This document shows, one piece after another, positions 22,045 to 52,896 of a stretch of 64,000 nt of DNA. Every line of letters starts with the position of its first letter. Positions within the stretch are counted from its first letter, which is position 1. A program made the position numbers and the translations under genes. Under the pieces are notes generated by a model that did not search any database, was not told the origin of the DNA, and was given only the letters and a program-made list of their open reading frames with translations. Origin of the DNA: an uncultured Actinomycetota bacterium (GTDB taxonomy: Bacteria; Actinomycetota; Actinomycetes; CAVWCF01); the NCBI GenBank assembly GCA_963753435.1, contig CAVWCF010000001.1, positions 928,001-992,000 on the forward strand, in the 5' to 3' direction.

Positions 22045-22728
22045 ATGCCGACACTGCTGGATGCGCTGGACGATCTCGTCTCGGCCGACGCAGCCAGGCC
22101 GCTGTTGACCTGGTACCGCGACGGGGCCCGGGTGGAACTGTCGGGGGCCACCGTGGCCAACTGGGTCGCCAAGACGGCGGGGCTACTGGAGAACGAGCTA
22201 CTCATCGGGCCCGGCTGCACGGTTCGGGTTCTTCCGGGACAGCACTGGCTGTCGCTGGTGGTCCCGCTTGCTGTTTGGCGCGTAGGCGCCGCCCTCGTCG
22301 ATGCTGGGCCGGCGGACCTGTTGGTGTCCGAACAAGTGGACGAGGACATCGATGCCGCGGAGTTCCTGATGCTGCCCAGCGACCCGTTCGGTCTGTCCCG
22401 CGCCGCGGTACCGCCCCCGTGGCAACTCTTCAGCGAGTTGGTTCAGGCCCAACCCGATCGCTACACCGCGCCACTACCCGGCGGTCCGCAGTTGGCGATC
22501 GCGTCCGCGCCCCAGTTGACTCACGAGCAGCTGATCGACCGGGCCCACGCCGACGCGGCGGCCGTTTCGCTGCCGAGCGAAGGCCGGTTGCTGCTGGTCA
22601 CCACAACCAAGTCCGCAGACCCCCTGCGGCTCTGGTGCGCAACCATCTCGGTGTCCGGCTCGATGATCCTCGCCGCGGAGTTGACCGAAGGGCTCGCGGC
22701 TGAGAAGGCCGACGTAACGATCAGTTGA
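22045..22728 (+). CDS. TIGR03089 family protein (truncated adenylate-forming-like domain)
   Basis: RPLLTWY..GARVELSGATVANWVAKTAGLL, HW, VQAQPDRY; the family is normally found next to manC/LCP genes. Confidence 0.85.
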   Translation: MPTLLDALDDLVSADAARPLLTWYRDGARVELSGATVANWVAKTAGLLENELLIGPGCTVRVLPGQHWLSLVVPLAVWRVGAALVDAGPADLLVSEQVDEDIDAAEFLMLPSDPFGLSRAAVPPPWQLFSELVQAQPDRYTAPLPGGPQLAIASAPQLTHEQLIDRAHADAAAVSLPSEGRLLLVTTTKSADPLRLWCATISVSGSMILAAELTEGLAAEKADVTIS

Positions 22729-24220
22729 CGTGGGTGGCGGCCTGCCGAGCCACCGCGTCCGGCACGGCAGCGGGACCACCGACGATCGTGATCAGGTCAA
22801 CGGTCGGAGTCGCGTCCAACCATGCGCCAACAGCGGCGGAGAGCACGGATGTGCCCGTCAACAGCACCGGCTGACCAAGAGCGCCACCCGGCAGCGCATC
22901 CACCACGTTCGCGGATGCCGCTGAGGCCAGAACCACTTCTTCGGCGTCGTCGCGGAACCGATCCGCCACCGCAACCGACAGGCCCGGCAGGTCTGCGACG
23001 TGGATCCGTTCTCCACCTGGCAGCGACGCGACCACGCCGTCGGTCAGTGGCGAAGCGAAGGAGACCGCAAAAGCCTGCGACACGCCGATCTGGGCCATCG
23101 CTTGAGCAGTGGTGGCCGGGACGTAGTCCGCTCGGGTCAGCAGGATCGGGGCCCTAATTGCCGCTGCCACCCCGCCGACCATCAGCGAAGTCGGGAGTTG
23201 GCTGTCCCAGAAGGGCGTGACGAATGCCTGGGGGGCTCCCCCGTTGATCTGGGCCAGTTCGCGGGCGATCTGCTCGGCGGTGACGAACCGATCCGCGCCG
23301 GCCAGTCGGGTCACGGCGATCCCCTCGCTCACCAGTTGGGCCTCGACGGCGGCGCCAACGGCGGCCGGACCCCCAAGCACGTAGGCCTGGTTGGCGGAGC
23401 GCCGTCGTAGTTCGGTGAGTGTCGCCGCGGGGATGCTGTCACCGCGGACGAGCAGCACGGGTGCGTCCGCCGAGGCCGCCAGCGGCGCTCCTACCAGCCC
23501 GTCGACCAAATGCCCCTGCTCTCCGGACGCGATGACGACAGTTCGCTGGTTGGGCCTGGTCTCCTTGGCGATCGCAGCCGCAGTCGCGTACCGGTCCGAA
23601 CCCCAAAGGCGGCGCACGTTGCAGCCGTCGGCACCGGGCAGGCAGCCACCGCCCGTGAAGAAGCTGGTCTCCCCCCGGGCTCCGGGCCAGGAGAACGAGA
23701 TGTGGATGTGATCGGTGTGTGGGCTCGAACCGGTGTAGGTGCGCCAAGGCTTGGCCGGGTCGGAGTCGTAGGCGCGCCACATGCGACCGTTCCAAATGAC
23801 ATACATGACGCCCATCCGCCGCGCCATCGCATGTTGGTTTCCGTGTGCGTCTGTGGCCAACAGCCAAGCCAGGAAGTCCTCAGCGACGGCCCGTTGGGCG
23901 GAGTTGCCGGCGTTCAGCATCCAGTCGAGCGCGCGACCCTCTTCATGGCCACTCGTGGTCGCGGAACTGCAGGACCGCAGCGTCCCGTAGCTGGTGTAGG
24001 TCGGATACGCCGTACGCAACAAGCTGATCGTCGCCGTGACGCCAGGCTGCACCGTGCTGGAGCACCCGGTTCCCTCGGTGGAGTCCCAGCCGGAGTACCC
24101 CTCAATCCACGGACCGAAGTCAGTCGTCACCACCGGTGCTGCCGTAGCCGGCACCGAAGGCAGGAGGAGGCCCGTCGCTGCGAGCGCAACCGCTAGGGCG
24201 ACGCGGATCAACGAGGGCAT
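22721..24220 (-). CDS. Secreted LAS-type (H-x6-D / H-x-H) peptidoglycan metallopeptidase with C-terminal CWB2 repeats
   Basis: Signal peptide (ATA-AP); SGHEEGRALDW, YVIWNGRMW, HTDHIHISF; then RLWGSDRYATA..APVLL, RLAGADRFVTA..APILL and a degenerate third repeat (QPVLL, IVGGPAAV). Confidence 0.75.
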   Translation of the reverse strand: MPSLIRVALAVALAATGLLLPSVPATAAPVVTTDFGPWIEGYSGWDSTEGTGCSSTVQPGVTATISLLRTAYPTYTSYGTLRSCSSATTSGHEEGRALDWMLNAGNSAQRAVAEDFLAWLLATDAHGNQHAMARRMGVMYVIWNGRMWRAYDSDPAKPWRTYTGSSPHTDHIHISFSWPGARGETSFFTGGGCLPGADGCNVRRLWGSDRYATAAAIAKETRPNQRTVVIASGEQGHLVDGLVGAPLAASADAPVLLVRGDSIPAATLTELRRRSANQAYVLGGPAAVGAAVEAQLVSEGIAVTRLAGADRFVTAEQIARELAQINGGAPQAFVTPFWDSQLPTSLMVGGVAAAIRAPILLTRADYVPATTAQAMAQIGVSQAFAVSFASPLTDGVVASLPGGERIHVADLPGLSVAVADRFRDDAEEVVLASAASANVVDALPGGALGQPVLLTGTSVLSAAVGAWLDATPTVDLITIVGGPAAVPDAVARQAATHVN

Positions 24221-24244: not shown

Positions 24245-24264
24245 ATGGGCACTTGAGCGCCCAT
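24245..24264 (-). terminator. 8-bp hairpin immediately after the SpoIID-gene stop (possible terminator or processing site)
   Basis: Minus ATGGGCGC-TCAA-GTGCCCAT (one G-U pair); no U-tract. Confidence 0.3.
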
Positions 24265-26375
24265 TAGGCGCGCATCGCCGCCAGCAGGGCCGCATCTGAG
24301 ACGGGAGCCTTGGCGCCTACGGCCACGACCTCCTGGACTCCCGGCGTCGTCTGCAACCACACCGAGGCCGCCCCCGGCAGACCACCGGGCTGAGTCAGCA
24401 GCACCAGTCGTCCCCACGCCCCCGCGGGAAGGGCGTCCACCAGGTGGGCGTCGACACCGGCAGCCAGCAACACCGGGGTCGTCGGAACAACGGAACGGAA
24501 CGCGCGGGCCACTTCCGAGGCGGTCTCAAACCGGTTCGCGCCGTTGGCCCGCCACGCCTTCGGCAACTGCGCCGCCACTGCAGTTCCGACCTGAGCGGTT
24601 CCGCCGACGATGGTGGCCGCAACCGGGCGGATCACATCCAAGACCTGACGCGTCGGCGTCGGAACCCCGTCGCGCGTTACCAACAGGATGGGACGACCGG
24701 AGCCAGCAGCCGCGCCGCCGGCCCCCAGCGCATCCGCCAAGGCCGTGCCGTTGACAACAAGTACCGGTCGGCCCTCGGGCACGCCCATCGCCCGAGCCAC
24801 TGCCGCAGCGGTCTCGTACCGATCGGCACCGGCCAACCGCACCACCTTGGTGACGCCAGCCGCGGTAAGCCCGGCCACCACGGCATCGCTCAGTGCGCCG
24901 GTGCTCCCGATGACATAGGCGGTGCGCGCCCCGCGCCGCTTGAGCTCGGACACTGTGACCGACGGCAAACCGCCCGCACGGGCCAGCAGCAGCGGCGCGC
25001 CTAGAGATTTCGCCAATGGCGCCGCGACCATGCCGTCGACCAGGTGCTCGGTCTCCCCGGAGGCGATGACCACCGTGGCTCCGGTGGGTACAGCCGCCTT
25101 GGCAACAGCCACCGCGGTGGCGTACCGGTCCGCCCCGGCGACCCGGTCGCCCTGGCGCAACACCCACGTGGAGGGCAGCCCCAATGATGTGCGCAGCTTC
25201 TCGCCGGTGATGCTCGCCGCCTTGCCGCTGGCCGACCATGCGGTCGCCCTCTTGACTCCGCCGCCGACGGTTCGGACGGACAGGTCCAGCCGGACTACAT
25301 CCGGCAGTCCGAACGCGGCCGCCATCTTGGCCTGGCTGATTGATCGCGACCAGGCCCGGTATGGGTTGGATGACTCGGTTGCCCCAGGGTCTGCGACGCT
25401 GCGCAGGTAGGGCAACGCCGAGGACCAGACCTCTTCACTGTTCTGGGTGCGGCCGCCGCTGGAGGAGTAGTAGTAGGCGCTCACCGGCTTGCCGCCGTAG
25501 GCCACCACCTTGCCGGTAGTCGACCCCGTTGACGTGGCGTTCACCGCCGCGGTCCAAGCGCTGCCGTACGAGCCCGATTGCTTTGACCACCCGACGTAGA
25601 CCTGGTCACTCGTCCCGTCGTAAAGGTGACAAGCGCAGGCCGAGCGGACGCCGGCGTTGTACTTGAGCACTGCGAAGGAACGCGCTGCGATCACCTGAGC
25701 CTGCAGAGCTGCGGCCGGCCAGGAGGAGGGCATCTCACCCAATCCGTACAGGTACTCGTCGCCGAGACGGAGGTTCACGACCACCTCGAGCTTGCCGCCA
25801 ACCACCTGCGCGGTGACGAACCCATGGCGATACGTCGTGCCGTTGACGCTAATCAAGCTGGCGATGTCGCCGGTCGAGCCCGGGTAGCGGGTGCCGCCCC
25901 AGAGGAAGGTCACCTTGGCGCCGCTGCGGACCGTGCCGCCGTTGCGCTTGAGGACGACCGAGGAACCGCTAGGAGCGATCGTCCACGTGTCAGCGGCCGC
26001 CCCGACCATCCCCCAGGTGCCATCAACGCCCACGTGGATCTTGCCGCCGCCACTGGCCAGCGGTACCCCCTTGAGGGTCGCGGCCGAGGCCGCATGCAGG
26101 ACGTTCACCCGCACAGTCATGTCGTCGCGCGCGGGCGCAGCGACAGCGCCGGTGTAGTAGTGGGCGACGATCTGGTCGGCGGACTTGCCAGCGGCAGCGA
26201 ACGCCTTTGCCCCGTACTGCGACATGCCGACGCCGTGGCCGAAACCGGAGCCGTAGAGCGTGAATGTCGAAGGGGCACTGCCCGCTTGTGCGGCGGGAAC
26301 CAGGAGTCCGGTGACCGACAGCGCCGTAACCGCCGCCAGCGCCCAGCCGGCCTTGATCGCGCGCGAGCCGATCAT
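24264..26375 (-). CDS. Secreted SpoIID/LytB-domain lytic transglycosylase with three CWB2 repeats
   Basis: Signal peptide; GFGHGVGMSQYGA, YLYGLGEMPSSWPAAALQAQVIAARSFA, DQVYVG, YYSSSGGRT, PYLRSVAD; repeats GADRYATA/PLLL, GADRYETA/PILL, GANRFETA/LVLL. Confidence 0.9.
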   Translation of the reverse strand: MIGSRAIKAGWALAAVTALSVTGLLVPAAQAGSAPSTFTLYGSGFGHGVGMSQYGAKAFAAAGKSADQIVAHYYTGAVAAPARDDMTVRVNVLHAASAATLKGVPLASGGGKIHVGVDGTWGMVGAAADTWTIAPSGSSVVLKRNGGTVRSGAKVTFLWGGTRYPGSTGDIASLISVNGTTYRHGFVTAQVVGGKLEVVVNLRLGDEYLYGLGEMPSSWPAAALQAQVIAARSFAVLKYNAGVRSACACHLYDGTSDQVYVGWSKQSGSYGSAWTAAVNATSTGSTTGKVVAYGGKPVSAYYYSSSGGRTQNSEEVWSSALPYLRSVADPGATESSNPYRAWSRSISQAKMAAAFGLPDVVRLDLSVRTVGGGVKRATAWSASGKAASITGEKLRTSLGLPSTWVLRQGDRVAGADRYATAVAVAKAAVPTGATVVIASGETEHLVDGMVAAPLAKSLGAPLLLARAGGLPSVTVSELKRRGARTAYVIGSTGALSDAVVAGLTAAGVTKVVRLAGADRYETAAAVARAMGVPEGRPVLVVNGTALADALGAGGAAAGSGRPILLVTRDGVPTPTRQVLDVIRPVAATIVGGTAQVGTAVAAQLPKAWRANGANRFETASEVARAFRSVVPTTPVLLAAGVDAHLVDALPAGAWGRLVLLTQPGGLPGAASVWLQTTPGVQEVVAVGAKAPVSDAALLAAMRA

Positions 26376-28735
26376 CGCGCGCTCCGAGCAGACAGGATCA
26401 GCACGCTGTCGGACACCGCCGCGGGGCCGCCGGCAATCGTGAGACTGCGAGCCCGGTCATCCAGCCATTGCTGCGTAGCCGATGGCAGCGCAGTCGGGGT
26501 GACCAGGACGACCGATCGCCCCAGTGCCCCGGCGGCCAGCGCGTCAGCCAGGTTGGCCGTCATGCCACTGGCGACAACGGCCAAATCCGGCGCTGTTGCG
26601 AAGGAGAAACCGTTGGCGACGGCGACCGCGGTTGCATAGCGGTCCGCCCCACCGAGCCGGGCGGCCTTGGGCAACTGGGTTCGCACCGTTTCCGAGATGA
26701 CGCCAGTGCTGCCAATGACCGAAGTGGCCGTCGTGCCCAACGCGGTCAGCGCTTGCTTGGTTGCCGCTGGAACCTCGTTCTTGCGGGTCAGCAGGATGGG
26801 CCGACCGGAGGCCGCGGCCGGACCTGCTGCCGACAAGGCGTCGACCAAGGAGGCGTCCTCACCGGATGCAACCACCGCGGCCGTTCCGGTCGGCGCCAGC
26901 GCTTCGGCCACCAGGCCGGCAGTTGCGAAGCGGTCGGCTCCGGAGATCTGAGTTACCGCGGCGCCAAGCGCGCGGACCTCGTTCAAAACCGTGGCCTGCA
27001 ACGCGCCTACCACGTAGACCTTGGTGGCACCGCGGCTGAGCAGTTCCGAGCGAACTGCTGGCGGGAGCTTGTCGTTGGCCGACAGCAGGACCGGTGCACC
27101 CAACTTCTTCGCGAGTGGGGCGACCACGAGCCCGTCGACGAGATTTCGCTGTTCACCGCTGACGAGGACGACGGTCTTCGCGCTTGGCGCCGCCTCGCGT
27201 CCCAGTGCCACGGCCGTGGCCCAACGGTCGGACCCCCCGGACCGCGACGCATTCGGGCAGGCCAGGCTTGCCCCGGCACTCTTCAAGACCGTGTAGTAGT
27301 ACTGCAGCGGACGCGACGTGCTGCCGGAGCCGGAAGCTGTCAGCGTCAACCGGAACCGGCCGATGCCTGCGGACGCGCCGCTGTCGGTCTTGCCGTCCCA
27401 CGGGATCAACCACGAACCCGCCCCGGCGTCCCCCGACCAGGTGCGCACTGTGGCTCCCGCGCAGAAGTCCTCCACGCGCAGCTGCCAGGACTGCGGAATC
27501 GAGGATGTCGCGCGGATCCTGGCAACGGCCGACCCCAACACGCCCGAGCCGGAGTCGAAGCTCGGGTTGAACAGGGCGGCCCCGATCAGCGAACGGGCGG
27601 CGCTGCGAATCGCCGACAGTTGGGAGAAGAGGTAGCGCCCCGGGCAGGCAGTGGAACCCACGTCGCGATGGGCCGCAAGCACCGGGATGGTCGCCTTCTG
27701 CCCGGCGGAGTACTTCGAAGTGCCGCCACCGCTGCTGGTCAAAGTCACCGAGCCAGTGGGGTCGCGGTGGAAAAGGTCCAGTTTCCAAGCAGCCACCCGC
27801 GATATCCCCTGCACCAGACCTGAGGTCGGAGAAGCGGTATCGAGGTTGCCGAGCGCAGCAATCGCGAAGGTGTCCGTGTTGAACCCACCGGTCGCGCCAC
27901 TCTGCACGGCCTTGTCGACGCCACCGGCGCGACCCTCGTAGATGCGGCCCGCCTGGTCGACGAGGAAGTTATATGGGATGTCGGAGTAGCCACGGCTGTT
28001 AACCGAGTACGCGTAGATGGCGCGAATGTCCTTGGCGGCGTCTGCCTGCGTCCAGCCCGACTTCTGCCAGTAGCTGTTCGACGACGCGGTGTGGTGCACG
28101 AAGCCGGCCCGGATCGTCGACATGTACTTGGGGCTGCCAGAGCGAAGCGACTCGTCAGCACCCCACTGGGCCCGGGACACGAATGCCGGGGTCGTTGCGG
28201 CTGCTTGCGCGCTGCTCACCGGAGTGGGAGTTATGGCGCCGTCGGCCGGCGAGGACCCGGGATCGATCAGTTCTACGCGAAGGTCCTTGGGCAACGCCTG
28301 CCCGCCGGCGACAACACGCACCTGCACTGCGTCGGAGTCCGGAGCGAGCAGTGGCTCGGTGCCGCCTCTGGTGACCTGTTGGCCTTCCTCGCTGTTCGCA
28401 TCCGGGCTGTCGTCGGACTGGTGTAGTTCGACCCACTCACCCCATTCGCCGCCGACCCGAGTCCGCACCTCGAACTCACTGCCGACCGGCTCGCGGCCGG
28501 ACCAGGTGATCCCGACGAGCCGGAACGGCTGCTCTGCCTCATGCGTGACCGTAGGCACAGACCCCGAGTCAGCGGCGAGCGAACTGGCTCCGGACGCCGT
28601 CAAGGAGACCTGCTCCACTACCGGGCTGACCGGTCGCGGCTTGGCCACGGCTGGCGTTGCCACTGGCAGGACCAAGACGGACCCGACGATGCCCGCTGCG
28701 GTGAGTGTGCTGAGCCAAATCCGTGGGGACAACAT
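26372..28735 (-). CDS. Secreted N-acetylmuramoyl-L-alanine amidase (Amidase_2/PGRP-like) with FlgD-Ig-like domain and three CWB2 repeats
   Basis: SRAQWGADES, FVHHTAS, GYSDIPYNFLVD, YEGRAGG, AHRDVGSTACPG (His/His/Cys Zn ligands); VRTW..WDGKTDSG; repeats GSDRWATA, GADRFATA, GADRYATA. Confidence 0.88.
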   Translation of the reverse strand: MLSPRIWLSTLTAAGIVGSVLVLPVATPAVAKPRPVSPVVEQVSLTASGASSLAADSGSVPTVTHEAEQPFRLVGITWSGREPVGSEFEVRTRVGGEWGEWVELHQSDDSPDANSEEGQQVTRGGTEPLLAPDSDAVQVRVVAGGQALPKDLRVELIDPGSSPADGAITPTPVSSAQAAATTPAFVSRAQWGADESLRSGSPKYMSTIRAGFVHHTASSNSYWQKSGWTQADAAKDIRAIYAYSVNSRGYSDIPYNFLVDQAGRIYEGRAGGVDKAVQSGATGGFNTDTFAIAALGNLDTASPTSGLVQGISRVAAWKLDLFHRDPTGSVTLTSSGGGTSKYSAGQKATIPVLAAHRDVGSTACPGRYLFSQLSAIRSAARSLIGAALFNPSFDSGSGVLGSAVARIRATSSIPQSWQLRVEDFCAGATVRTWSGDAGAGSWLIPWDGKTDSGASAGIGRFRLTLTASGSGSTSRPLQYYYTVLKSAGASLACPNASRSGGSDRWATAVALGREAAPSAKTVVLVSGEQRNLVDGLVVAPLAKKLGAPVLLSANDKLPPAVRSELLSRGATKVYVVGALQATVLNEVRALGAAVTQISGADRFATAGLVAEALAPTGTAAVVASGEDASLVDALSAAGPAAASGRPILLTRKNEVPAATKQALTALGTTATSVIGSTGVISETVRTQLPKAARLGGADRYATAVAVANGFSFATAPDLAVVASGMTANLADALAAGALGRSVVLVTPTALPSATQQWLDDRARSLTIAGGPAAVSDSVLILSARSAR

Positions 28736-28754: not shown

Positions 28755-28905
28755 AGCGTTATCGCAGGCGCCAGCGGAAGCCGCCTCACCCATTTGGAGG
28801 TATCGGGCCCCGCCGCCGCGGACTTGAACACCCTGAGGCCTCCGCGCGCAGACACGCCAGAGGGCGGCCGAAAGGATCATGGACGAGCGCCTACGGTGTT
28901 CCCCC

Positions 28906-30111
28906 GTGAGCTTCGGACGGACTCGACTTCCCCGGGTGGAGTCCCTCACCGGCCTGCGCTGGTTCGCCGCCTTCGCCGTCTTCGCTCACCACCTGAACAA
29001 CTTCGCGCCCCTGCCGATCATCAAGGACATGGCGTTCGGTGTGACCGGCGTCACGTTCTTCTTCGTGCTCTCCGGGTTCGTGCTGACCTGGTCGGCGACC
29101 GCCAACGACACCGCCGGCCGGTTCTACTGGCGCAGGTTCGCCCGCATCTGGCCGTTGCTGGCGGTGTCGACCCTCCTGGCGATTCCGGTCTTCTACGGCT
29201 CATCCGACAGTTTCCAGAAGCCGTTGGATTCCACGGCGCTGATCGGCATCGTCTTGTGCCTGCTCCTGCTGCAGGCCTGGTCGGACAACCCCGCCATCTT
29301 CTTCGCCGGCAACCCGGCCGCCTGGTCCCTGAGTTGCGAGGCGTTCTTCTACGCGATCTTCCCGCCGACCATCCGCCGAGCGATGCCGCGGGGAGTCCCG
29401 GCCATGCTGATGGCCGCCGTCGGCCTCGTGATCGTGAGTTGGGCTCTCCTGTTGTGGCTGCGCTATGCACCACCGGACCCGGACTCACCGCTGCGCATCT
29501 TCTTCCGAGAGCCCATGTACCGGGTTCCGGAGTTCCTCTTGGGTGTTGTGCTTGGAGTGGCGGTTCGCGCCGGGTGGCGACCGCGCCTCTCGGTGCCCGC
29601 CGCGGTCGGGCTGGTCTTCCTCGGAATAGCCACCCTCGTCTTGTGGCGGCACAGCCCCGGCCTGACTGAGTCGTTCATGAAGCCAACTAGCGCCATGAAT
29701 CAACTAATGGCGCCGCTGTACGGCCTACTGATCGTCGCCGTTGCCGTCCGCGACGTTCGCGGTGGTCAGTCCCGACTGCAAACCGGCTGGTTGGTCGCGC
29801 TGGGCAAGTGGTCCTACGCCTTCTACCTGGTGCACGCCACGGTGATCTACACCTTCCGCCTCGTCCTCGGCGTACAGCCTTCGTCGTGGTCCAACGTCGT
29901 ATGGATCGGCCCCATGCTGCTGGCGTCAATCGCGGTTGCGGCCGCGTTGTACATATGGGTGGAGCACCCGACGGAACGGCGCCTGCGGGCCATGCTGCCG
30001 CCGCGGCCGGAAGAGCCCCCGACTGCCGACGACCCCGTTCCCGCTGCCACGACGACGGTTGCCGCTACGCGTGCGGACCCGGTCGACCGCGATGGCGGAT
30101 CAGCCCGCTGA
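28906..30111 (+). CDS. Acyltransferase_3 (OafA-like) membrane O-acyltransferase
   Basis: SLTGLRWFAAFAVFAHH, GVTFFFVLSGFVL, FYWRRFARIWP, AWSLSCEAFFY, LGKWSYAFYLVH, YIWVEHP. Start may instead be 28879. Confidence 0.9.
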   Translation: MSFGRTRLPRVESLTGLRWFAAFAVFAHHLNNFAPLPIIKDMAFGVTGVTFFFVLSGFVLTWSATANDTAGRFYWRRFARIWPLLAVSTLLAIPVFYGSSDSFQKPLDSTALIGIVLCLLLLQAWSDNPAIFFAGNPAAWSLSCEAFFYAIFPPTIRRAMPRGVPAMLMAAVGLVIVSWALLLWLRYAPPDPDSPLRIFFREPMYRVPEFLLGVVLGVAVRAGWRPRLSVPAAVGLVFLGIATLVLWRHSPGLTESFMKPTSAMNQLMAPLYGLLIVAVAVRDVRGGQSRLQTGWLVALGKWSYAFYLVHATVIYTFRLVLGVQPSSWSNVVWIGPMLLASIAVAAALYIWVEHPTERRLRAMLPPRPEEPPTADDPVPAATTTVAATRADPVDRDGGSAR

Positions 30112-41675: not shown

Positions 41676-43007
41676 ATGACGGCGTCTGCACCGCACGTCC
41701 TCTACATCGCATGGGGTTTCCCGCCTTGCCGCGGCAGCGGTGTCTACCGCGCACTCGCTACGGCCAACGCGTTTGCCGCCAACGGCTGGAAAGTCACGGT
41801 GCTCACCGCCGATCGAGAAATCTGGCTCCGCTACACCGGCGCGGACCTCAGCCTGGAGGAACGCATCGATCCGCGGGTCAACGTGGAGCGGGTTCGGTTC
41901 GAGTGGCCGACTCTGGACCCTGACATCTCCAGTTGGTCGCGCTTGCGTGTCGCCACCCCGCGGGTGTGGGGCCGGGTACGCCGCCTGCGCGACCAGTTGC
42001 CGTTCCCCGAGGTCGCCTACGGCCCTTGGCTGCCCGTACTCAAGGAAGCGGTGCAGCGCATCCACGAACAGGACCCGGTCGATCTGACCGTGGCAACGGC
42101 AAACCCGCATGTGACATTCGGCGCAGCACACCACCTGTGGCGGACCGCGGGCGTGGACTACGTCATGGACTACCGCGACGCGTGGACCCTGGACGTGTTC
42201 AGCGGCGACCGGGTGCACTCACCGCGATCGCGCGCCGGTCGACGCGAAGCCGAACTGATCGGCGCCGCCAAAGAGGTCTGGTTCGTAAACGACCGGATCC
42301 GCGACTGGCACCGCACCCAGTACCCGGGGCAGGCCGATCGCATGCACACAGTCGCCAACGGCTACGACCCGGAGTTCGTCCCACCGGGCATCGGCCGCGC
42401 CCCCGATCCGGATCGGCCGTTGCGCTACGGATACCTGGGCACGATCTCGACCCGGGTTCCGATCGGTGAGTTCGCCGAGGGCTGGCGCCAGGCTCGCCGG
42501 GCGGAGCCGCTTGCGGACGCCACCGCGGTAATCCGTGGGCACCTCGGGCACTACCGCGCCGCGAATGCGAACGTGTCGGCGATGCTGGATTCGGCGCAAG
42601 AAATCGGCATCACGTACGACGGACCCGTGGCTAAGGCGGACGTTGCGGACTTCTATCACTCCGTGGACGTCCTCCTGCTCATCTTGGGCTCGGGCCGGTA
42701 TGTGACCTCGGGCAAGGTGTTCGAGTACGCCGCAACTGGGCTGCCGATCGTGTCCGTTCACGACCCCGACAGCGCCGCGAGCACGGTGCTGGCCGACTAC
42801 CCATCGTGGTTCCCCGCCGCCAGCCTCAGCGCGGCGGACATCGCAGCCGCGCTGCTCGCGGCCGGGCGGGCGCGCCGTGCCGAGACGGCCGAAGCGCGCG
42901 ATGCCGCCGTCGCGGCGGCCCAGAAGTTCGCGCGGGATGCCCAGCTGCGTCCGCGCGTCGATGCCCTGCGCCCCAAGGCGCCAACCTCGAGTGCACCGAC
43001 ATCGTGA
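41676..43007 (+). CDS. GT4-like glycosyltransferase (paralog of 33238-34542)
   Basis: FPPCRGSGVYR, VATANP, MDYRDAWT, ANGYD, GYLGTI, TSGKVFEYAATGLPIV; GGAGG RBS. Confidence 0.85.
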   Translation: MTASAPHVLYIAWGFPPCRGSGVYRALATANAFAANGWKVTVLTADREIWLRYTGADLSLEERIDPRVNVERVRFEWPTLDPDISSWSRLRVATPRVWGRVRRLRDQLPFPEVAYGPWLPVLKEAVQRIHEQDPVDLTVATANPHVTFGAAHHLWRTAGVDYVMDYRDAWTLDVFSGDRVHSPRSRAGRREAELIGAAKEVWFVNDRIRDWHRTQYPGQADRMHTVANGYDPEFVPPGIGRAPDPDRPLRYGYLGTISTRVPIGEFAEGWRQARRAEPLADATAVIRGHLGHYRAANANVSAMLDSAQEIGITYDGPVAKADVADFYHSVDVLLLILGSGRYVTSGKVFEYAATGLPIVSVHDPDSAASTVLADYPSWFPAASLSAADIAAALLAAGRARRAETAEARDAAVAAAQKFARDAQLRPRVDALRPKAPTSSAPTS

Positions 43008-43570
43008 GCGAGCCCCTGCGCGTGGCCGTGCTCTCCGGAGGCCGCCTGCCCGACATCAGCGCCCTGGCTCCAGTCGCCGAACTCCGCAGCCGCGGCGCCG
43101 AGGTCGCCCTCATCTCCCGCCAGCTTCCCAGCTCCGCCCAGCAAGGCCTCTTCGACGCTGCCCACGTGCTCGGTCGCGGGCCGGCAGCAGAACTGACGGC
43201 GCTGATGGAAGCCGCGAACGACGCCACCGAGGCCGACCCGGCCGCACCGATCACGCGGGCACGGCCGCCGCTGCCGCAACTGGTTGTCCGCAAGGCCCAG
43301 TTGGAGGCCAGGCGGGCCCGGCGGGTGGCTCGGCGCTCAGCACTGCGCGCCCGGCGCGGTCTGCAGCGGCGCCTACGCCGAACGGGACCTCGACCGCTGG
43401 GACGCGACCTGCGCGCCGACCCGGTCGCTGGCGCTCTGGTGGACCGTGCGGATCTGGTGGTCGCCCTGGACCGCGCCGGCGTGCGCATCGCCTGGGATCG
43501 CGCGCGGCAGACTGGGGCGGGAGCCGTCCTGGGCCTGCCTGCGGCGGTCTGGTGGGTGGACCACCGCTGA
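43004..43570 (+). CDS. Hypothetical Arg-rich protein coupled to the upstream GT (paralog-like to 32726-33241)
   Basis: GTGA overlap with the 43007 stop; LRVAVLSGG..GAEVALISR, ADLVVALD..IAWDRAR. Confidence 0.6.
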   Translation: MSEPLRVAVLSGGRLPDISALAPVAELRSRGAEVALISRQLPSSAQQGLFDAAHVLGRGPAAELTALMEAANDATEADPAAPITRARPPLPQLVVRKAQLEARRARRVARRSALRARRGLQRRLRRTGPRPLGRDLRADPVAGALVDRADLVVALDRAGVRIAWDRARQTGAGAVLGLPAAVWWVDHR

Positions 43571-43591: not shown

Positions 43592-44667
43592 TCAGGCAAG
43601 GAGTGCGGCGACGGCCGCCGCCAGCCGCCGGTACTCCCCCGTGTCCGTTCGCGTGGCCGCCCAATCCCGAGCTCGATCGCGTAGTCCCAGCAACTCTGAT
43701 GGATCCAGTTGCCAACGCCGCAGCACTTCGCCGGCCGCAGCCGCATCGACCACGATCCCCGCTCCGGAGTCCACCAGCAGTGACTCCTGCCGGGGCAGTG
43801 GCGATGCCAGCACCGGCAGTCCGGCGGTCAAGTACTCCACGACCTTGGTCGGCAAAGCCTCTACGAACGCCGGCGTCGAGTGCAGCAGACTCAAGCCCAC
43901 CCACGCGTCAGCGGCACCCGCCCAGGCCCGCTCGGGGGGTTGGCGGCCCCAGAGCCGGACACGGTCACCAAGTCGCTCCGCTGCGATCTGGGCCCGCAGC
44001 TCGTCCGCTTCGCTCGGGGCGATCGGTCCAACGAGATCCATCGTCCAGTCTGGCGCTTGCGCGATGGCGCGAACCATGTCGAACGCGCCCCGTGTGCGTC
44101 GGATATCGCCTACATACAGAGCGCGAGGCCGGGCAGCGGGATCGGCCGGCTCCGGCAGATAGCCGGACTCCGGCGTGTTGCGGACGACGACGCGGTTGCG
44201 CGCGCGCAGTGGCGGCACCTGGTCGTCAGCCACGATGGTCAGGTCCGCGCGAGCGGTGAGTTCGTTGGCCCAGCGCAGTCCCGAGGTAACGGCCTTGACC
44301 TGGGCCGAAGGCCAATCTCGGTCCAGCACCAACTTCGTGTAGTCCTCGTGTACGTCGACCGCCACGGGCGGACCGCCCAGGCGGCGCCGTGTCATTGCGG
44401 GCACGACCAGGTCCGGGTCCAGCACCAGCAGTACTGAACCCGTGGCCTGCCAGGGCAGTCGCGCCCCGGCCCGCAGGCGCGCACCGAGCCCCGAGCGAGG
44501 ACGGGTGAACACACGCTCTGCTGATTCCGGGGCCGCGGCTGGATCACCCAGCCCGAGCACCTCCACCGACAGGCCGTGCTCGGTGAGTGCGGCGACGGTT
44601 CGGTGCAGCCGCGCATCGGCGACGTCATGTCCCGTCGTCAGAACGCTGACATCGACTGGCGCGCCGG

Positions 44668-46401: not shown

Positions 46402-47538
46402 CTAGGGCGCGGCAAGCGCCAAAGCCTGCACGAGCCTGGGCCCATCCACGTCCCAAGACAGTTCGGGTTGGGCCGCGGCAACGGCGGCGCACAGCTCGGC
46501 ATAGTTGGTCCGGGCCGCTTCGACCGCCGCAGCCAGCGACTTGTGGTCGCCCGGGCGGTAAAGCGTGCCGATGCCGTATCGGCGGACCACGGCCGCAAGT
46601 TCATCCACGTCAGTTGCCACCACGGGCACACCGGCGTGGATCGCGTGGAAGAGCTTGTTGGGCAGAGCCAGGCGGTGGTTCTCCCACCGATCGGAGTGAG
46701 ACACCAGCGCCAAGCCGGCCGCCTGCAGCCGCTTCGTCACCTCATCCACCGGTTCGGCGCCGAGCACGGTCACCTTCCCGGTTCGTAGGCGCGCCAAGAA
46801 CTGCTCGTCGGCGGGACCGAGCAGGGTGACCGGCAGGTCCAGCAATTCCGCTGCCTCGATCGCCACCTCGATTTCCCGGTCGGCCGCGATGCGGCCCGCG
46901 TAGACGAGTCCGGTCGGCTCGGGGATTGGTTGCAGCTGCGCATTCAACGGAAACGTGTTGCGGACGACTTCGACGTTGTCCCAGCCGTAGCGGCGCCGGA
47001 GGGCGGCTGCAACTCCCTCCCCGACAGTGATGACTACGCGTGCTTGACCACCTAGTACCCGTTCCTGCGCGATCTCTCTGCGGTTTGCCAGCGGCGTTGG
47101 GCGGCCTTGACGCGGTCGCCCAGGCCAGTACTCGTGCGTGTCGTACACGTACGGCACGGCGCTGGCCCGGGCCAGTTCCGCGCCGACGGCCAACGCGGTG
47201 AAGTCGTGAGCATGGACAACGTCGAATTCGCGCCCTTGCGCGTCCGCGTGCGCGGCTTCGGCCCAGGCCCCGAAAACCGCGGCTCGATGCCGCGGCAGCA
47301 GAAGCCACCTGGCCACCCGGTACAGCAGGGTCGTGCGCCGAACGCGGGCCGCAGTCGCTGGCAGCGTCGGCTGATCCCCCACGCTCGACACGGTGACGCC
47401 GGCCGGGGGAACGAAGTCGCCTGGAACCGCCCGACCGATCACGTGCACGGCGTGGCCGGCTTCGGCGAGGGTCTGTGCCTCACGAAGCACTCGGGTATCA
47501 GTGGCGACGGACGTCGCCACAAGCATGAGGATCTTCAC
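46402..47538 (-). CDS. GT4 glycosyltransferase
   Basis: KILMLV..DTRVLREA, VVHAHD, VYDTHEYW, YAGRI, ALPNKLF..AGVPVVATD; GTGA overlap with the upstream GT2. Confidence 0.88.
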   Translation of the reverse strand: MKILMLVATSVATDTRVLREAQTLAEAGHAVHVIGRAVPGDFVPPAGVTVSSVGDQPTLPATAARVRRTTLLYRVARWLLLPRHRAAVFGAWAEAAHADAQGREFDVVHAHDFTALAVGAELARASAVPYVYDTHEYWPGRPRQGRPTPLANRREIAQERVLGGQARVVITVGEGVAAALRRRYGWDNVEVVRNTFPLNAQLQPIPEPTGLVYAGRIAADREIEVAIEAAELLDLPVTLLGPADEQFLARLRTGKVTVLGAEPVDEVTKRLQAAGLALVSHSDRWENHRLALPNKLFHAIHAGVPVVATDVDELAAVVRRYGIGTLYRPGDHKSLAAAVEAARTNYAELCAAVAAAQPELSWDVDGPRLVQALALAAP

Positions 47539-48506
47539 CGGCGCGCCAGCCTTGCCGGACTGGACAGGAAGCCCCATCCCCAGGCCAGGTGCATCACCGG
47601 CAATACGACCGGGAGACGAACCGCGCTGCGCCAGGCAAGCCGACTGCCGATGACCGCGCTGCCGCCGAGCACGACGAGGGCGTATCCGCCCGGCAACAAC
47701 CACCCGACACGAAGGCCCAGCAGCCCGGCGGCAGTGCCGGCGACGACACCGACCAGCGCCATGGGCGGAGCCAGGTACCGGAAGGTGACGGTGCCGCGAT
47801 GCTGCCGGGCAACGACCCGCCGCCACCTCCCATAGTCGCGATATTGGCGCGCCAGCGCCCGGACGGTGGATCGGGGTCGGTACGTCACCCGCAGCCGCGG
47901 CGTGAACCAGACGGTGCCACCGGTCTGCCGGATCCGATGGTTCATCTCCCAGTCCTGCGCCCTGGCGAAGCCCTCGTCGTACCCGCCGACTCGTTGCAGG
48001 GCCGCACGGCGGAAGGCGCCCAGGTAGACGGTGTCGGCGGGGCCCTCCGCGCCGCCGGTATGGAAGCGGGCCGCCCCCACCCCCAGCGGACTGGTCATGG
48101 CCGCCGCCACCGCCGCTTCAAATGGGGTCGTGCCCTCAGCCGCCATCACGCCACCCACATTGTCCGCACCCGTGGACTGCAGCACCTCCACCGCGACGCG
48201 CAGGTAGTCGGGCGGGAAGAGCGCGTGTCCGTCCACGCGAACCACCAAATCGTGCTCGGCGGCCCCGATGGCGGCATTCAGCCCGGCCGGGGTTGCTCCA
48301 GTGGGATTCGGGACCAGTCTGATCCGTGGGTCCGTTGCGCTCAGGTCCCGGGCGATCACGTCCGTGCCATCGGTCGACGGCCCCAGGGCCAGGATCAACT
48401 CCCACGGGCCGGGGTAATCCTGCCGTTGGATCTGGGTAACGGACTCGGCCAGGTGCCGCTCCTCATTGAGAACCGGCATCACCACTGAGACGGGCGGCCA
48501 GGACAC
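47535..48506 (-). CDS. GT2 glycosyltransferase (ExoA-like, LCP-adjacent)
   Basis: VSVVMPVLNEE, PSTDGT, VRVDGH, DTVYLGAFRR, GGYDE..RAQDWEMN, QYRDYGRWR; C-terminal TMs. Confidence 0.88.
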   Translation of the reverse strand: MSWPPVSVVMPVLNEERHLAESVTQIQRQDYPGPWELILALGPSTDGTDVIARDLSATDPRIRLVPNPTGATPAGLNAAIGAAEHDLVVRVDGHALFPPDYLRVAVEVLQSTGADNVGGVMAAEGTTPFEAAVAAAMTSPLGVGAARFHTGGAEGPADTVYLGAFRRAALQRVGGYDEGFARAQDWEMNHRIRQTGGTVWFTPRLRVTYRPRSTVRALARQYRDYGRWRRVVARQHRGTVTFRYLAPPMALVGVVAGTAAGLLGLRVGWLLPGGYALVVLGGSAVIGSRLAWRSAVRLPVVLPVMHLAWGWGFLSSPARLARR

Positions 48507-48654: not shown

Positions 48655-50226
48655 GTGACCGACGTCCCACAGCCGGCCGCTGGCGAGTACGGCGCGGCAG
48701 ATCAAGGAGAGCGCGTGAGCAGTGGAGTGGGTGCCGCGCCGTCGGCTGCTCCAGCGCTTCCCCCGGAGTTGGACCCACGGCAGCCACCGCGCCGCAACTG
48801 GGTGCTTCGGGGTCTAGCCGGTGGCGTCAGCGCTGCGATCGTGGCGGCGAGCCTGTTCGGGTACATCACCTTGAACTACTACGACGACAAGATCACCCGG
48901 ATCGACAACGTCTTCGCCGGTCGCGATTCGGATCGGCCGGTCAAGGTCGCGACCGAGTCGATCAACATTCTGCTGGTCGGGTCCGACAGCCGGGAAGGAC
49001 TCACCCGCGAAGAGATCTCCCAACTCAAGGTGGGCATCGAGGGCGGACCCGACGGCAGCGGTCGCCGTGCCGACACCGCGATCCTGATGCACCTGGACTC
49101 CGACTGGTCCCGGGCGACCTTGGTGAGCTTCCCCCGTGACTCCTTGGTCGACATCCCCGAGTTCACCGACTCGGACGGGAGCACCACCCGAGCTCAGCAG
49201 AACAAGCTGAACGCCGCTTATGCCATCGGCGGCCCGCAGTTGCTTGTGTCGACGATCGAGCAGAACACGGACCTGCGCATCGACCACTACGTCGAAGTGG
49301 GGTTCGACGGCTTCGTGAAGGCCGTGGACGCCGTCGGCGGAGTCGATGTGTGCACCGAGGAAGCGATCAGCGACCGGCGCTCCGGTCTCGAACTGGCTGC
49401 CGGCGAGAGTCGACTGGACGGCGCCCAAGCGCTGGCATTCGCACGCGCCCGCTACTTCGACCCGACCGCGGATATCGGCCGCATGCAGCGGCAGCAGCAG
49501 TTGCTGGCCTCGCTGTTCAACGAAGCGACGTCGACCGGGGTGCTGTTGAACCCCCTGCGACTGAACGGCCTGCTCGACGCCACGCTGTCCTCGATCTCCA
49601 CCGACCCCGGGTTCGACCGTCAACTCATGCTCAACCTCGCTACCAAGATGCGTGATGTCGCCGGCGGCGAAGTCGTCTTCACCACCGTGCCGATCGGTGA
49701 CGCCAACAACCGGATCGAGGGCATCGGATCCACCGTGGAGTGGGACGAGCAGGCCGCTGAGGAGTTGTTCCGCGCCATCCGCGAGGACCAGCCCATCGGG
49801 TCGCAGTCAGAGGAGGCGGCCGCGGCGGCCCCAAGCACCACGCCGGTCGTCTCAGTCCCACCGGGGTCAATCTCCATGAAGGTCCTGAACGGTGTGGGCA
49901 CAGCGGGACTGGCCCGGCAGTCGGCCGACCAGCTGGCGGCCCTCGGGTTCTCGGTAACCGGCGTCGGCGACGGAGAACGCGTCACGGCCACGGAGATCCG
50001 GTACGACCCGCTGTGGGACGAATCGGTCAAGACCGTTGCCGCGGCACTGCCGGGCGCCCGGCTGGTGCCGGTGCCGGGCCAAGGCGGCACCTTTGTTGTC
50101 GTGATCGGCGACGCGAACCAAGCGTTCCAGCCGGTAACGGTCCAGGCGGCCGCCGACGAGCCGGCCCCAACAGCTTCAGAGTCGGCAGCACCGGTCCGGT
50201 CCGCCGCCGACCCGCTCTGCGGCTGA
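48655..50226 (+). CDS. LCP (LytR-CpsA-Psr) glycopolymer-peptidoglycan ligase with LytR_C domain
   Basis: One TM; NILLVGSDSR, RADTAILMH, VSFPRDS, KLNAAY, IDHYVEV, ALAFARARY, DIGRMQRQQ; C-terminal VLNGVGTAGLA..VVIG. Confidence 0.93.
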   Translation: MTDVPQPAAGEYGAADQGERVSSGVGAAPSAAPALPPELDPRQPPRRNWVLRGLAGGVSAAIVAASLFGYITLNYYDDKITRIDNVFAGRDSDRPVKVATESINILLVGSDSREGLTREEISQLKVGIEGGPDGSGRRADTAILMHLDSDWSRATLVSFPRDSLVDIPEFTDSDGSTTRAQQNKLNAAYAIGGPQLLVSTIEQNTDLRIDHYVEVGFDGFVKAVDAVGGVDVCTEEAISDRRSGLELAAGESRLDGAQALAFARARYFDPTADIGRMQRQQQLLASLFNEATSTGVLLNPLRLNGLLDATLSSISTDPGFDRQLMLNLATKMRDVAGGEVVFTTVPIGDANNRIEGIGSTVEWDEQAAEELFRAIREDQPIGSQSEEAAAAAPSTTPVVSVPPGSISMKVLNGVGTAGLARQSADQLAALGFSVTGVGDGERVTATEIRYDPLWDESVKTVAAALPGARLVPVPGQGGTFVVVIGDANQAFQPVTVQAAADEPAPTASESAAPVRSAADPLCG

Positions 50227-50823: not shown

Positions 50824-52896
50824 ATGGACCACCTCTCTCGGCGCCTGCTGCGCGGAGCCGGTGCGGCCATCACCGGCGCTGCGCTGCTGATCTCGGTCAC
50901 GCCAGTGACGGCAACTGCCACAGCCGCCCCACTCGTACGGGACACAAGCGCAGCTGCCACGCCGAGGCCAACCCCAGCCATCCCCTTGATCGATGCCGAC
51001 CCCGCCGCGGCGTTGCCGACAACGGCTGTGGGCGGCACCGCGGCCCTGCCCGAATCGCTGACCCAGCGCGCGGTGCGCGTCAGTGGTGCCGATCCGACGC
51101 GGGTGTCCGGTGCCGATAGGTACGAGACCGCAGTAGCGCTCAGCGAGCGGTACTTCCCGTCCGGAGCCGGAACCGTTGTCCTGGCGACGGGCACCGGGTT
51201 CGCCGACGCGCTGGCGGGAGCGCCGCTCGCCGCGTCCCTCGACGCACCCCTGCTGTTGACCCGACCGACCGGAGCGCCGGAGTCGGTCCGAGTCGAGATC
51301 GCCCGGCTCCAGCCAGCCAGGCTCGTCGCGGTTGGCGGGACCGCGGCGGTCAGCCAGGCCGATCTGACGTCCCTGGCGGCGCTTGCCGGCGGGGCGCAGA
51401 CCGAGCGCGTGGCCGGCGCGGATCGGTACGGCACTGCGGCCGCAGTGGCCGCCGCCCTGGCCCCGGTGCAGTTCGCGGTGGTCGCCTCCGGGCTCAACTT
51501 CGCCGACGCACTGTCCGCTGGGCCGCTGGCGGCCCGGCGGCAAGGCGCCGTGCTGCTTACCCCTCCCGACCGTTTGGGCGCGGCGGCGGCGGCCGCGATA
51601 GCCGGGTTGCCGGCGTCTTCGGTGCTGATCGCCGGCGGCACTGGCGCAGTGTCGACCGCCGTCGAATCCGACCTCGCCGCCCTCCTCGGCGGCCCGGCCA
51701 GCCGAATCGGGGGTATCGACCGCTACGACACATCTGCCCGCTTCGCGACGGAGGTCGCCAAGGACGGCGGTCGCGGCGGGTCGCTGTTGACGACCGGCGC
51801 GGACTACCCCGACGCGATGGTCGCCGCGGCCCACGGTTCACGCCTCGGGCAACCGGTCCTGCTCATGGGAGGCCCTTACCGCTTCGGCCACGACGCTGCC
51901 CTGGCCCGTACCCGCGGGGTCGGTCCCTGGCTGCAGTTGACTTTGGATGCCCTCGCGGCAACCGACCGCGGCCTGCCGCTGAGACACACCGCTTACACCC
52001 AGGCCTATCGCGCCGACACGATTGGTCGCGCCTACGGCTGGGATCACGCCGAGGCCACCGATTCTCTGCAGCAGGTGCGGGCGACGGTCAAGCCGGACGG
52101 CGGCTATGGGCTCGACAACGGGTGGGACGCCTTCAGCGACGGGACCAAGAACCCCGCTGAGACGTCCTACCTGATCACGATCACCGATCACGTTGGCCGC
52201 GCCCTGCTTGACGGCTTCCAGGCCGGCGCCGTCCCAGCCGAGGAAGTGGCAGCCCTGGTCGAACTCGTGCGCGACTGGCCAACGGTCACGGACCAGCCTG
52301 GATGCCTGGCGTACTCCAACAGCGAGTACGACCGGACTTCGTGCGTGCACAACGTCAACTCAAGCGCCATCTGGTTCATCGACGCGGCCGAGCGTGCAGG
52401 TGCCTGGAGCGGCCCGCCGGCGGATCTTTCCGACCTCCTGGCCGAAGAAACCGGCGCCTACCTGGGTAACGGGTGGTGGCCGTACCGGGACGACCAGACC
52501 AGCCGCCAGGACGTGAACCACAACGCGGCTCAGATCGAGCACTTGCAGTTCACCGCGCCAGGCCTGGCCGCTGACGCGCTGGCGCTCATGCTCGACGACC
52601 CAGCAGTCCCCTACCACCCCGAAGTGACGATGCGCTCCGCCTACGACCCCTTGGGCTTCCTGCGCCTAGGTGAGCAGTCCTGTGCCGCGGCGAACTCCGC
52701 GTACGCGGAATCGGCGACGTTGACGGAGACCGCCCCGTACGCGGTGGTCACCGCGCAACTGGCCCTGTGGGCCGCGCGGGTGGCCGAATGTCCTGCGCCG
52801 ACCGCGACTGCGGCACTGCAGTCAGTGACACCTACCGGGCCATTGCCGCTGCCGCCGGTCGCCGGACCAGAGGCGCGCCCGGTTCCAACCCCCTGA
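50824..52896 (+). CDS. Secreted protein with N-terminal CWB2 repeats and an uncharacterised ~330-aa C-terminal helical (putative enzyme) domain
   Basis: GAGGAG RBS; SRRLL signal peptide; GADRYETA/FADAL/PLLL, GADRYGTA/FADAL/AVLL, GIDRYDTS/YPDAM/PVLL; C-terminal DGGYG..DAFSDGT.NP, CLAYS..CVHNVN, GWWPY, QDVNH. Confidence 0.75.
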   Translation: MDHLSRRLLRGAGAAITGAALLISVTPVTATATAAPLVRDTSAAATPRPTPAIPLIDADPAAALPTTAVGGTAALPESLTQRAVRVSGADPTRVSGADRYETAVALSERYFPSGAGTVVLATGTGFADALAGAPLAASLDAPLLLTRPTGAPESVRVEIARLQPARLVAVGGTAAVSQADLTSLAALAGGAQTERVAGADRYGTAAAVAAALAPVQFAVVASGLNFADALSAGPLAARRQGAVLLTPPDRLGAAAAAAIAGLPASSVLIAGGTGAVSTAVESDLAALLGGPASRIGGIDRYDTSARFATEVAKDGGRGGSLLTTGADYPDAMVAAAHGSRLGQPVLLMGGPYRFGHDAALARTRGVGPWLQLTLDALAATDRGLPLRHTAYTQAYRADTIGRAYGWDHAEATDSLQQVRATVKPDGGYGLDNGWDAFSDGTKNPAETSYLITITDHVGRALLDGFQAGAVPAEEVAALVELVRDWPTVTDQPGCLAYSNSEYDRTSCVHNVNSSAIWFIDAAERAGAWSGPPADLSDLLAEETGAYLGNGWWPYRDDQTSRQDVNHNAAQIEHLQFTAPGLAADALALMLDDPAVPYHPEVTMRSAYDPLGFLRLGEQSCAAANSAYAESATLTETAPYAVVTAQLALWAARVAECPAPTATAALQSVTPTGPLPLPPVAGPEARPVPTP

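Follow-up and report, generated by a model that had tools for sequence, protein, structure and literature searches.

What do the CWB2 (PF04122) repeats of an actinomycete's wall hydrolases hold on to? The question is raised by a 64,000-nucleotide stretch of DNA (the window; G000:C1:928001-992000, GC 65-74%) from the 2.17 Mb, 98% complete genome of an uncultured Actinomycetota bacterium, in which three predicted wall hydrolases ending in CWB2 triads stand to the left of a block of wall-polymer genes and a fourth CWB2 protein stands to its right. By analogy with the Cwp proteins and the polymer PSII of Clostridioides difficile, we lean towards the reading that the three left hydrolases are residents of the block and that their triads hold them on the block's polymer, an arrangement we consider somewhat probable. 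The locus names a candidate ligand for actinomycete CWB2 triads, which are present in about one tenth of the Actinomycetes genomes sampled.

In C. difficile three CWB2 repeats are needed, they bind peptidoglycan that carries its polysaccharide and not stripped peptidoglycan, and the cwp genes are neighbours of the polymer locus (PMC4973711); positive patches have been suggested as the PSII site (PMC8881574). CWB2 is broadly found in Actinobacteria (PMC9045149), so its occurrence in this group is not new, and it is listed among hydrolase anchors, with no ligand in Actinomycetota given in the accessible text of PMC6403190 and PMC8051824. Across the mostly open-access literature on CWB2, PF04122, PSII and teichuronic acid we found no CWB2 ligand described in Actinomycetota, and a proven ligand in one organism only, C. 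difficile.

CWB2 proteins of the window

22721..24220, minus strand: VldE-like (LAS/M15 fold) zinc peptidase domain with a C-terminal CWB2 triad (nt 22733-23617), predicted secreted; PF04122 three times, model, Foldseek
24264..26375, minus strand: SpoIID/LytB-type lytic transglycosylase domain with a C-terminal CWB2 triad (nt 24270-25151), predicted secreted; PF08486, PF04122 three times
26372..28735, minus strand: Amidase_2 and Ig-like domains with a C-terminal CWB2 triad (nt 26384-27250), predicted secreted; PF01510, weak PF13860, PF04122 three times
50824..52896, plus strand: N-terminal canonical CWB2 triad (nt 51094-51900) with an (alpha/alpha)6 toroid domain; PF04122 three times, model pLDDT 95

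The original prediction of four CWB2 proteins with about three repeats each was borne out by profile search, in which PF04122 matched three stretches in each of the four open reading frames (likely starts 24220, 26375, 28735 and 50824) at 107-155 bits against a cut-off of 24.9, with E values across the proteins of 5.9e-31, 3.8e-37, 2.1e-37 and 6.6e-46; as a control, the profile also gave a match in Bacillus subtilis. The strict motif GxDR[YFW]xT[AS] is present in 10 of the 12 repeats (2, 2, 3 and 3 per protein), and a hydrophobic, signal-peptide-like N-terminus was seen on all four by reading the sequences by hand. The triangular pseudo-trimer expected on structure prediction, as in Cwp6 and Cwp8, was found in the one protein of the four modelled for it, 22721, whose AlphaFold model (pLDDT 95) matches Cwp6 (5J72) at a Foldseek E of 1.3e-20 and a root-mean-square deviation of 2.0 Å over 321 columns, and Cwp8 at 2.5 Å. 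Sequence matches to 5J72 were found for 22721 and 50785. By sequence and by fold (modelled for 22721), the four window proteins are members of the CWB2 family.

The N-terminal domain of 22721 resembles the Streptococcus pneumoniae l,d-endopeptidase VldE (9FLN; Foldseek E 4.6e-6, TM 0.78 by target), sharing its LAS fold and the zinc motifs H-x6-D and HxDHxH (PMC11667670). It differs in its low identity (~22%) and in having CWB2 as partner domain; a metagenome scan using 22721 returned matches mostly to this domain. The SpoIID protein 24264 scores above the cut-off of TIGR02669 and has the motif YLYGLGEMP.

Genome-wide there are 24 PF04122 repeats in eight CWB2-triad genes, four inside the window and four outside. 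Their clustering is beyond chance, with two of the genome's six CWB2 loci in one 30-kb block (P ~0.003), and the left locus is the only one conserved in relatives. In a FastTree phylogeny of 135 triads the left three fall within one 17-row clade (SH-like 97), which also holds slot hydrolases of G011, G055, G085, G104 and L007 (G, L, C and f are our handles for genomes, loci, contigs and families). Most members of this clade have an HLVDG-like motif, and the left three triads are one distinct subfamily.

Linkage of the left three hydrolases in relatives

Judged by gene order, the block fills the common Actinomycetes wall-polymer slot that runs purE–LCP…manC. The trio of amidase, SpoIID protein and VldE-like protein with CWB2 recurs in G011, G085, G104 and G317/L007, and its first two genes recur in L011 (L007 and L011 were retrieved using a window protein as query). 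The left three stand beside the same wbp/Wzm cluster in four other genomes, the slots of G011, G085 and G104 being split over contig ends. Here the proposal that four CWB2 genes bracket the locus stands for the left three and falls for the fourth, which was seen in none of the relatives' slots read.

A CWB2 gene is found in the slot of 11 of the 18 CWB2-positive genomes of the class that were read (G011, G028, G031, G055, G085, G087, G104, G123, G140, G151 and G207), a count that leaves out G037, G106, G157 and most weak-match genomes. With about 30 CWB2 genes in some of these genomes, chance may at times account for one in the slot. From other classes, two of the four CWB2 clusters read (G456 and G514; not G501 and G591) lie inside wbp/Wzy-type loci, and L008 does likewise. 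SLH-type slots are marked by csaB; no gene marking CWB2-positive slots was seen in the loci read, which were compared by eye and not by systematic clustering.

Several unusual CWB2 arrangements were met along the way. One open frame in G031 (L086:16141-18675) fuses a GT4 domain to a CWB2 triad, and in G207:C149 (L306-L307) and G145 (L180/L201) amidase and SpoIID share one open frame, with partial CWB2 repeats between them in G207. CWB2 triads were also found in diderm-assigned records, L052 (titled Zixiibacteriota), L020 and L055 (titled Steroidobacteraceae), where they are either real or binning errors; four CWB2 genes in L052 adjoin wbp-like genes.

Polymer predicted from the block

21009..22022, minus strand: manC, mannose-1-phosphate guanylyltransferase, the slot's left landmark; NF052502 above cut-off, same place in relatives
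22045..22728, plus strand: conserved slot gene with no Pfam match, presumably TIGR03089-like; homologues adjoin manC/LCP in many loci
28879..30111, plus strand: AT3 O-acyltransferase; PF01757
30100..32715, minus strand: two-domain glycosyltransferase, predicted polymerase; PF13692/PF13439/PF13524
32726..33241, minus strand: 171-aa protein of no family; no match in Pfam or NCBIfam
33238..34542, minus strand: GT4-like glycosyltransferase; PF13439
34539..36404, minus strand: glycosyltransferase whose C-terminal domain is common to 30100 (E 4e-104); weak PF13524
36401..37693, minus strand: WbpA-like UDP-sugar 6-dehydrogenase; PF03721/PF00984/PF03720, TIGR03026
37775..38836, plus strand: WbpI-like UDP-2,3-diacetamido-glucuronate 2-epimerase; PDB matches
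38908..39909, minus strand: WbpB-like 3-dehydrogenase; Gfo/Idh/MocA, NF040723 E 1.3e-57, under cut-off
39906..40997, minus strand: WbpE-like aminotransferase; PF01041, WbpE structures at E 4e-69 ranked third after two other transaminases
40994..41587, minus strand: WbpD/WlbB-like N-acetyltransferase; hexapeptide repeats, top PDB match 3MQG at E 5.8e-43
41676..43007, plus strand: glycosyltransferase, paralogue of 33238 by sequence comparison (E 2e-73), with no Pfam match of its own
43004..43570, plus strand: 188-aa protein of no family; weak homologues in L007 and G170
43592..44566, minus strand: GT4 glycosyltransferase; PF00534
44668..46327, minus strand: ABC exporter, Wzt 44668-45468 and Wzm 45446-46327; Pfam/NCBIfam matches
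46402..48506, minus strand: GT4 (46402-47577) and GT2 (47535-48506); Pfam
48655..50226, plus strand: LCP–LytR_C glycopolymer ligase; Pfam, NCBIfam, LCP motifs present
54149..57140, both strands: UDP-glucose dehydrogenase (plus) and purE/purK (minus), the slot's right landmark; Pfam, same order in relatives

All five enzymes of a ManNAc3NAcA route are encoded, the epimerase and acetyltransferase assignments being the best supported; the epimerase matches UDP-2,3-diacetamido-glucuronate 2-epimerase structures at E 1.3e-106 and UDP-GlcNAc 2-epimerases at 1.2e-71 or weaker. The WbpA/B/E/D/I-like route is predicted to give UDP-ManNAc3NAcA and hence an acidic polymer, in agreement with what had been proposed. 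The listed contents of the block also hold up, with seven glycosyltransferase genes (30100, 33238, 34539, 41676, 43592, 46402 and 47535), the AT3 gene, the sugar genes, and for export and ligation the Wzm/Wzt exporter and 48655, the only LCP found in the genome. The description of the block as complete does not, because a WecA-like initiator is encoded elsewhere: no PF00953 or PF02397 initiating transferase was found in the window, and the WecA-like gene lies at G000:C1:732981-734072, before the atp operon and ~225 kb from the block (the genome's other PF00953 gene, at C1:94.7 kb, is MraY).

A search of the genome for TagF found none, Pfam and NCBIfam gave no phosphotransferase family among the block's genes, and the TuaC/D/G/H models were all far under cut-off for them. 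Two-domain homologues of the 30100 glycosyltransferase occur in most wbp loci read. The GT2 gene 47535 is kept opposite the LCP gene, with 57-67% identity in wbp-type loci and one TagF-type locus, and is predicted to make the linkage unit. The position of the AT3 gene is occupied by a divergent second LCP gene in G085, G104, G317 and G006. Altogether we read the block as the principal wall-glycopolymer locus predicted for the cell.

From these genes, UDP-ManNAc3NAcA would be supplied by the WbpA/B/E/D/I-like enzymes. The WecA-like enzyme encoded far from the block would prime the lipid carrier, on which the seven glycosyltransferases would build an O-acylated chain of teichuronic type. Wzm/Wzt would export the chain, and the one LCP, as its family suggests, would attach it to peptidoglycan. 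The predicted secreted amidase, SpoIID-type transglycosylase and VldE-like peptidase would each fold a CWB2 pseudo-trimer, as modelled for one of them, and on the precedent of PSII these triads would bind the polymer non-covalently.

Distribution and evidence against the block's polymer as ligand

A number of results weigh against the block's polymer as the ligand of these triads. Seven of the 18 slots (G006, G063, G102, G121, G141, G154 and G170) have no CWB2 gene in the stretch covered, and the clade of the left three also occurs in genomes in which no WbpB was found, namely G055, whose slot is TagF-type, and the genomes of L005, L006 and L015. In G154, G170 and G006 CWB2 and WbpB occur in one genome, yet the slot hydrolases end in tails of other types. 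Of 16 amidases that share a contig with wbpB, 13 lie within 25 kb of it and only one of these 13 ends in CWB2. The net charges of the four triads (+7, +5, -7 and -2) give no consistent polyanion-binding signal, the predicted chain differs from the proven ligand PSII, which is a glycosyl-phosphate polymer, and the genome holds a second polysaccharide cluster, described below.

Distribution across genomes is a further point on this side. WbpB-like genes (E <1e-70) were found in 66 of 301 class (Actinomycetes) genomes and PF04122 in 30 of the 301, or in 23 of 301 phylum genomes at E <1e-15. A WbpB-like gene is present in 10/29 CWB2-positive and 55/271 CWB2-negative class genomes (P 0.10), and in 6/15 against 59/285 when strong-CWB2 genomes only are taken as positive (P 0.10). 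A second WbpB type, the only one covered in the phylum sample, which includes the unpublished genomes G320 and G364, gave 6/22 and 65/278 (P 0.61). These P values treat genomes as independent although kin are included. CWB2 and the WbpB-type polymer show no clear coupling in distribution, and the co-occurrence that had been suggested for checking was seen in position and not across genomes.

Among CWB2-negative genomes we read 40 kb around wbpB in 10 of 55, picked among strong matches on long contigs; six of the 10 have LCP, Wzm/Wzt and wbp genes together, several near the window order and near purE or manC. In family f30 all seven genomes are CWB2-positive and all seven lack the window-type WbpB; rhamnose and GDP-mannose genes were found in those of its slots that were read. 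The window's own genome is placed in Actinomycetes by its gene content and by the titles of homologues. The comparison collection holds no genome of the same genus and two of the same family, G001 (88% complete) and G002 (58% complete). Both have no CWB2, yet also no manC, canonical LCP or WbpB match, and they are uninformative because the slot is missing from those assemblies.

Alternative ligands

Searches of the genome for glycosyltransferases found 10 PF00535 and nine PF00534 genes. The second polysaccharide cluster, of Wzx/Wzy type (G000:C2:86339-110637; L098, L314), has a PF02397 initiator, a cytidylyltransferase, Wzz-, Alg14-, GT2-, Wzx- and Wzy-like genes, a CDP-alcohol phosphotransferase and a gene for a secreted protein of 1462 aa; a CWB2 gene comes next. 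Another glycan locus outside the window is the AftD-like cluster on C6. The triads could bind a different or generic glycan such as this polysaccharide, possibly phosphate-bearing, or else an LCP-made linkage unit or a lipoglycan, an alternative that we find unlikely but the best of those considered. The cluster's own initiator and phosphotransferase and its adjoining CWB2 gene speak for it, as do CWB2 genes elsewhere in rhamnose/GDP-mannose-type and TagF-type slots, and PSII itself is a phosphate polymer (PMC4973711). However, the CWB2 gene at this cluster is frameshifted and of another subfamily, and the left three are kept beside the wbp/Wzm genes in the four other genomes, a comparison that covers the window-type cluster alone.

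In the frameshifted gene (G000:C2:109231-111050; L314:14231-16060, minus strand) the signal-like N-terminus is read in one frame and the triad in another. The change of frame falls within a glycine-rich stretch containing a G run and may reflect an assembly error, a pseudogene or phase variation. The triad of this gene clusters with CWB2 proteins from the slots of G123, G140 and G028. Elimination among the genome's polymers favours the window's polymer as the CWB2 ligand but does not single it out.

The co-location may otherwise be inherited from hydrolases that have long been resident in the slot whatever their tail, with the triad binding peptidoglycan or wall non-specifically. This would fit the 13 of 16 same-contig amidases near wbpB, 12 of them with no CWB2, the SpoIID genes beside wbp genes with no CWB2 in L050, L068, L073 and L074, and the absence of WbpB enrichment in CWB2 genomes. 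Yet stripped peptidoglycan is not bound by the CWB2 of C. difficile (PMC4973711), and CWB2 genes with other domains are also found in the slot (G031, G087, G123, G140 and G151). We regard this second alternative as quite improbable.

The fourth protein, 50824, bears on what remains. Its triad shares 34-37% identity with the left three and 35-41% with the genome's four distant triads, and in the tree of 135 triads it stands outside the left-three clade with no supported partner. A Pfam search of its C-terminal domain gave no match, and the best structural match is to GH76 (Z 21.6 at 9% identity), with many near ties among (alpha/alpha)6 enzymes. Full-length relatives number four other proteins and domain relatives 184, most of single-domain length; an atlas search with the domain gave scores all <0.9, and no relative's slot read has a counterpart of it. 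From these comparisons 50824 is a separate lineage-specific insertion outside the conserved cassette, and the four-gene bracket is incidental. The protein would use the same ligand as the genome's other CWB2 proteins, whichever that is.

A dedicated system sufficient in itself, with a complete polymer locus flanked and accompanied by all four CWB2 genes, is very improbable and its co-travel claim largely refuted: four of eight CWB2 genes do lie within 30 kb, and the chance of one of five canonical-type genes falling ≤5 kb from the block edges is ~0.02, but the fourth triad and its catalytic domain stand apart as just described, the initiator gene is elsewhere, and LCP, Wzm/Wzt and wbp genes occur together in the six CWB2-negative loci.

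Exchangeable tails on the slot hydrolases

Of the 66 WbpB-positive genomes, 45 gave an amidase match and 38 a SpoIID match, and tails were surveyed in the 30 best loci for each enzyme. The 30 amidases end in CWB2 in four cases, in FG-GAP in 10 and in no Pfam-named anchor in 16, of which, by eye, seven share a cysteine-containing tail and about five another repeat. The same tail is carried by both enzymes as CWB2 in G000, G011, G085 and G104, as the cysteine tail in G006, G059, G083, G102, G120 and G137, as FG-GAP in G067 and G308, as SLH in G141 and as an unnamed repeat in G031 and G123. Mismatches were seen in G061, G135, G222 and G278, where SpoIID is tail-less, and in G257 and G268, where the tails differ. 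On a 24-row tree the tail state changes at least 10 times. To judge from these sequences, the slot amidase and SpoIID can exchange one anchor for another, and relatives usually have matching tails on both. The analysis did not establish several origins of the amidase CWB2 tail: the free tree scatters these tails, but a single clade is not rejected by the approximately unbiased (AU) test (p 0.105; 24/36 rows).

We tentatively propose, at something under an even chance, that Actinomycetes swap the tails of the slot amidase and SpoIID together (CWB2, FG-GAP, SLH and unnamed) as readers of the local polymer, and that the HLVDG CWB2 subfamily here reads a phosphate-free ManNAc3NAcA teichuronic acid. 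If true, CWB2 would have its first ligand outside Firmicutes, and for the first time one other than a phosphate polymer. One hydrolase pair with many exchangeable tails in one slot is a genomic route to new glycan-binding domains.

Some of the other tails deserve a note of their own. The cysteine-containing C-terminal domain (L163-L168, L189-L192, L195, L198 and L200) is 150-220 aa long, basic-looking and unmatched in Pfam; seven wbp-cluster genomes carry it on their slot amidase and, in most cases, on SpoIID as well, and it is a candidate new wall-glycan-binding module. In family f30 the slot amidase and SpoIID, and a GH18 protein in G031, end in three to four unnamed ~100-aa repeats with RPDV…GF and no Pfam match, at these loci:

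L085:15707-18328, f30 RPDV…GF repeats
L086:7400-12355, f30 RPDV…GF repeats
L102:11112-13832, f30 RPDV…GF repeats
L103:2747-5194, f30 RPDV…GF repeats

SLH repeats end both slot hydrolases of G141 (L131:8033-10021 and L132:3826-6705), an actinomycete parallel to SLH anchoring in Bacillus. Both hydrolase tails of G295 (L172 and L208) resemble heavily decayed CWB2 triads by eye; Pfam and clade-profile searches gave no matches.

Comparison with known systems

Set beside known systems, the locus fits neither the PSII type nor the tua type and is a variation on a known design, and a dedicated pairing of CWB2 and polymer is not supported. Its significance is limited in that the design is known and the polymer cassette is common.

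With Cwp/SlpA and PSII of C. difficile it shares PF04122 repeats in tandem sets of three, placed at one end or the other of proteins that here are predicted to be secreted (PMC4973711, PMC5842191), a predicted trefoil fold (5J72, 5J6Q), genes that adjoin a wall-polymer locus, and wall hydrolases as cargo. The polymers differ, PSII being a hexaglycosyl-phosphate made where TagO is absent and the chain here a predicted uronic-acid chain that is exported by Wzm/Wzt and probably WecA-primed; on gene content, a PSII-type glycosyl-phosphate ligand was not found. The amidase is Amidase_2 here and has an amidase 3 domain in Cwp6, the CWB2 genes number eight here and 29 there, and no SlpA orthologue was found in this genome (NF033435 far under cut-off).

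The lytR–lytABC and tua gene layout of B. subtilis was originally said to have the same parts list. This is right for the CWB2-bearing amidase and the SpoIID-domain protein and wrong for the tua-type enzymes, given the Tua models above. In G085, G104 and G317 an LCP gene divergent from the amidase gives a B. subtilis-like layout. The reversed domain order was confirmed, with catalytic domains first and the triad C-terminal in the left three; the amidase is Amidase_2, the VldE-like protein is an added third enzyme, and export is by Wzm/Wzt. The likeness of LytB/LytC to Cwp repeats is in print (PMC5842191), and the tua polymer pathway is a different one (PMC13274773).

The nearest polymer precedent comes from Streptomyces griseus, in which a ManNAc3NAcA teichuronic acid was solved by nuclear magnetic resonance and the same five-enzyme route proposed, with enzymes that do not resemble those of B. 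subtilis teichuronic acid (PMC13274773). As described there, the Utr enzymes include a dehydrogenase, an oxidase/aminotransferase pair, an N-acetyltransferase, a 2-epimerase, glycosyltransferases and an O-acetyltransferase, to which we liken those of the block. The S. griseus chain differs in being attached to a ribitol-phosphate teichoic acid and recognised by the lectins of umbrella toxins (PMC13274773); here Wzm/Wzt and LCP lie inside the cluster, and TagF was not found. The LCP–LytR_C architecture of 48655 is that of the glycopolymer ligase CglA of Streptomyces venezuelae, which has several paralogues where this genome has one copy, and no CWB2 link was seen in the accessible text on CglA (PMC11481543).

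Other observations

Promoter, terminator and Rfam scans gave no signal above background. Two further gene groups of the genome were noted: an AftD-like GT-C cluster (G000:C6:34-12201; L313) with a PorA-family protein, AT3, GT4 and GT2, and a row made up of a processive-type GT2, an exosortase-family membrane protein and a small secreted protein (G000:C1:738439-741909; L312). Left of manC, at window positions 18422-21076, an AglJ/PgfS-like GT2 lies with a lysylphosphatidylglycerol-synthase-like membrane protein, and GC drops to ~0.65; a pair of this kind adjoins CWB2 genes in f30 slots.

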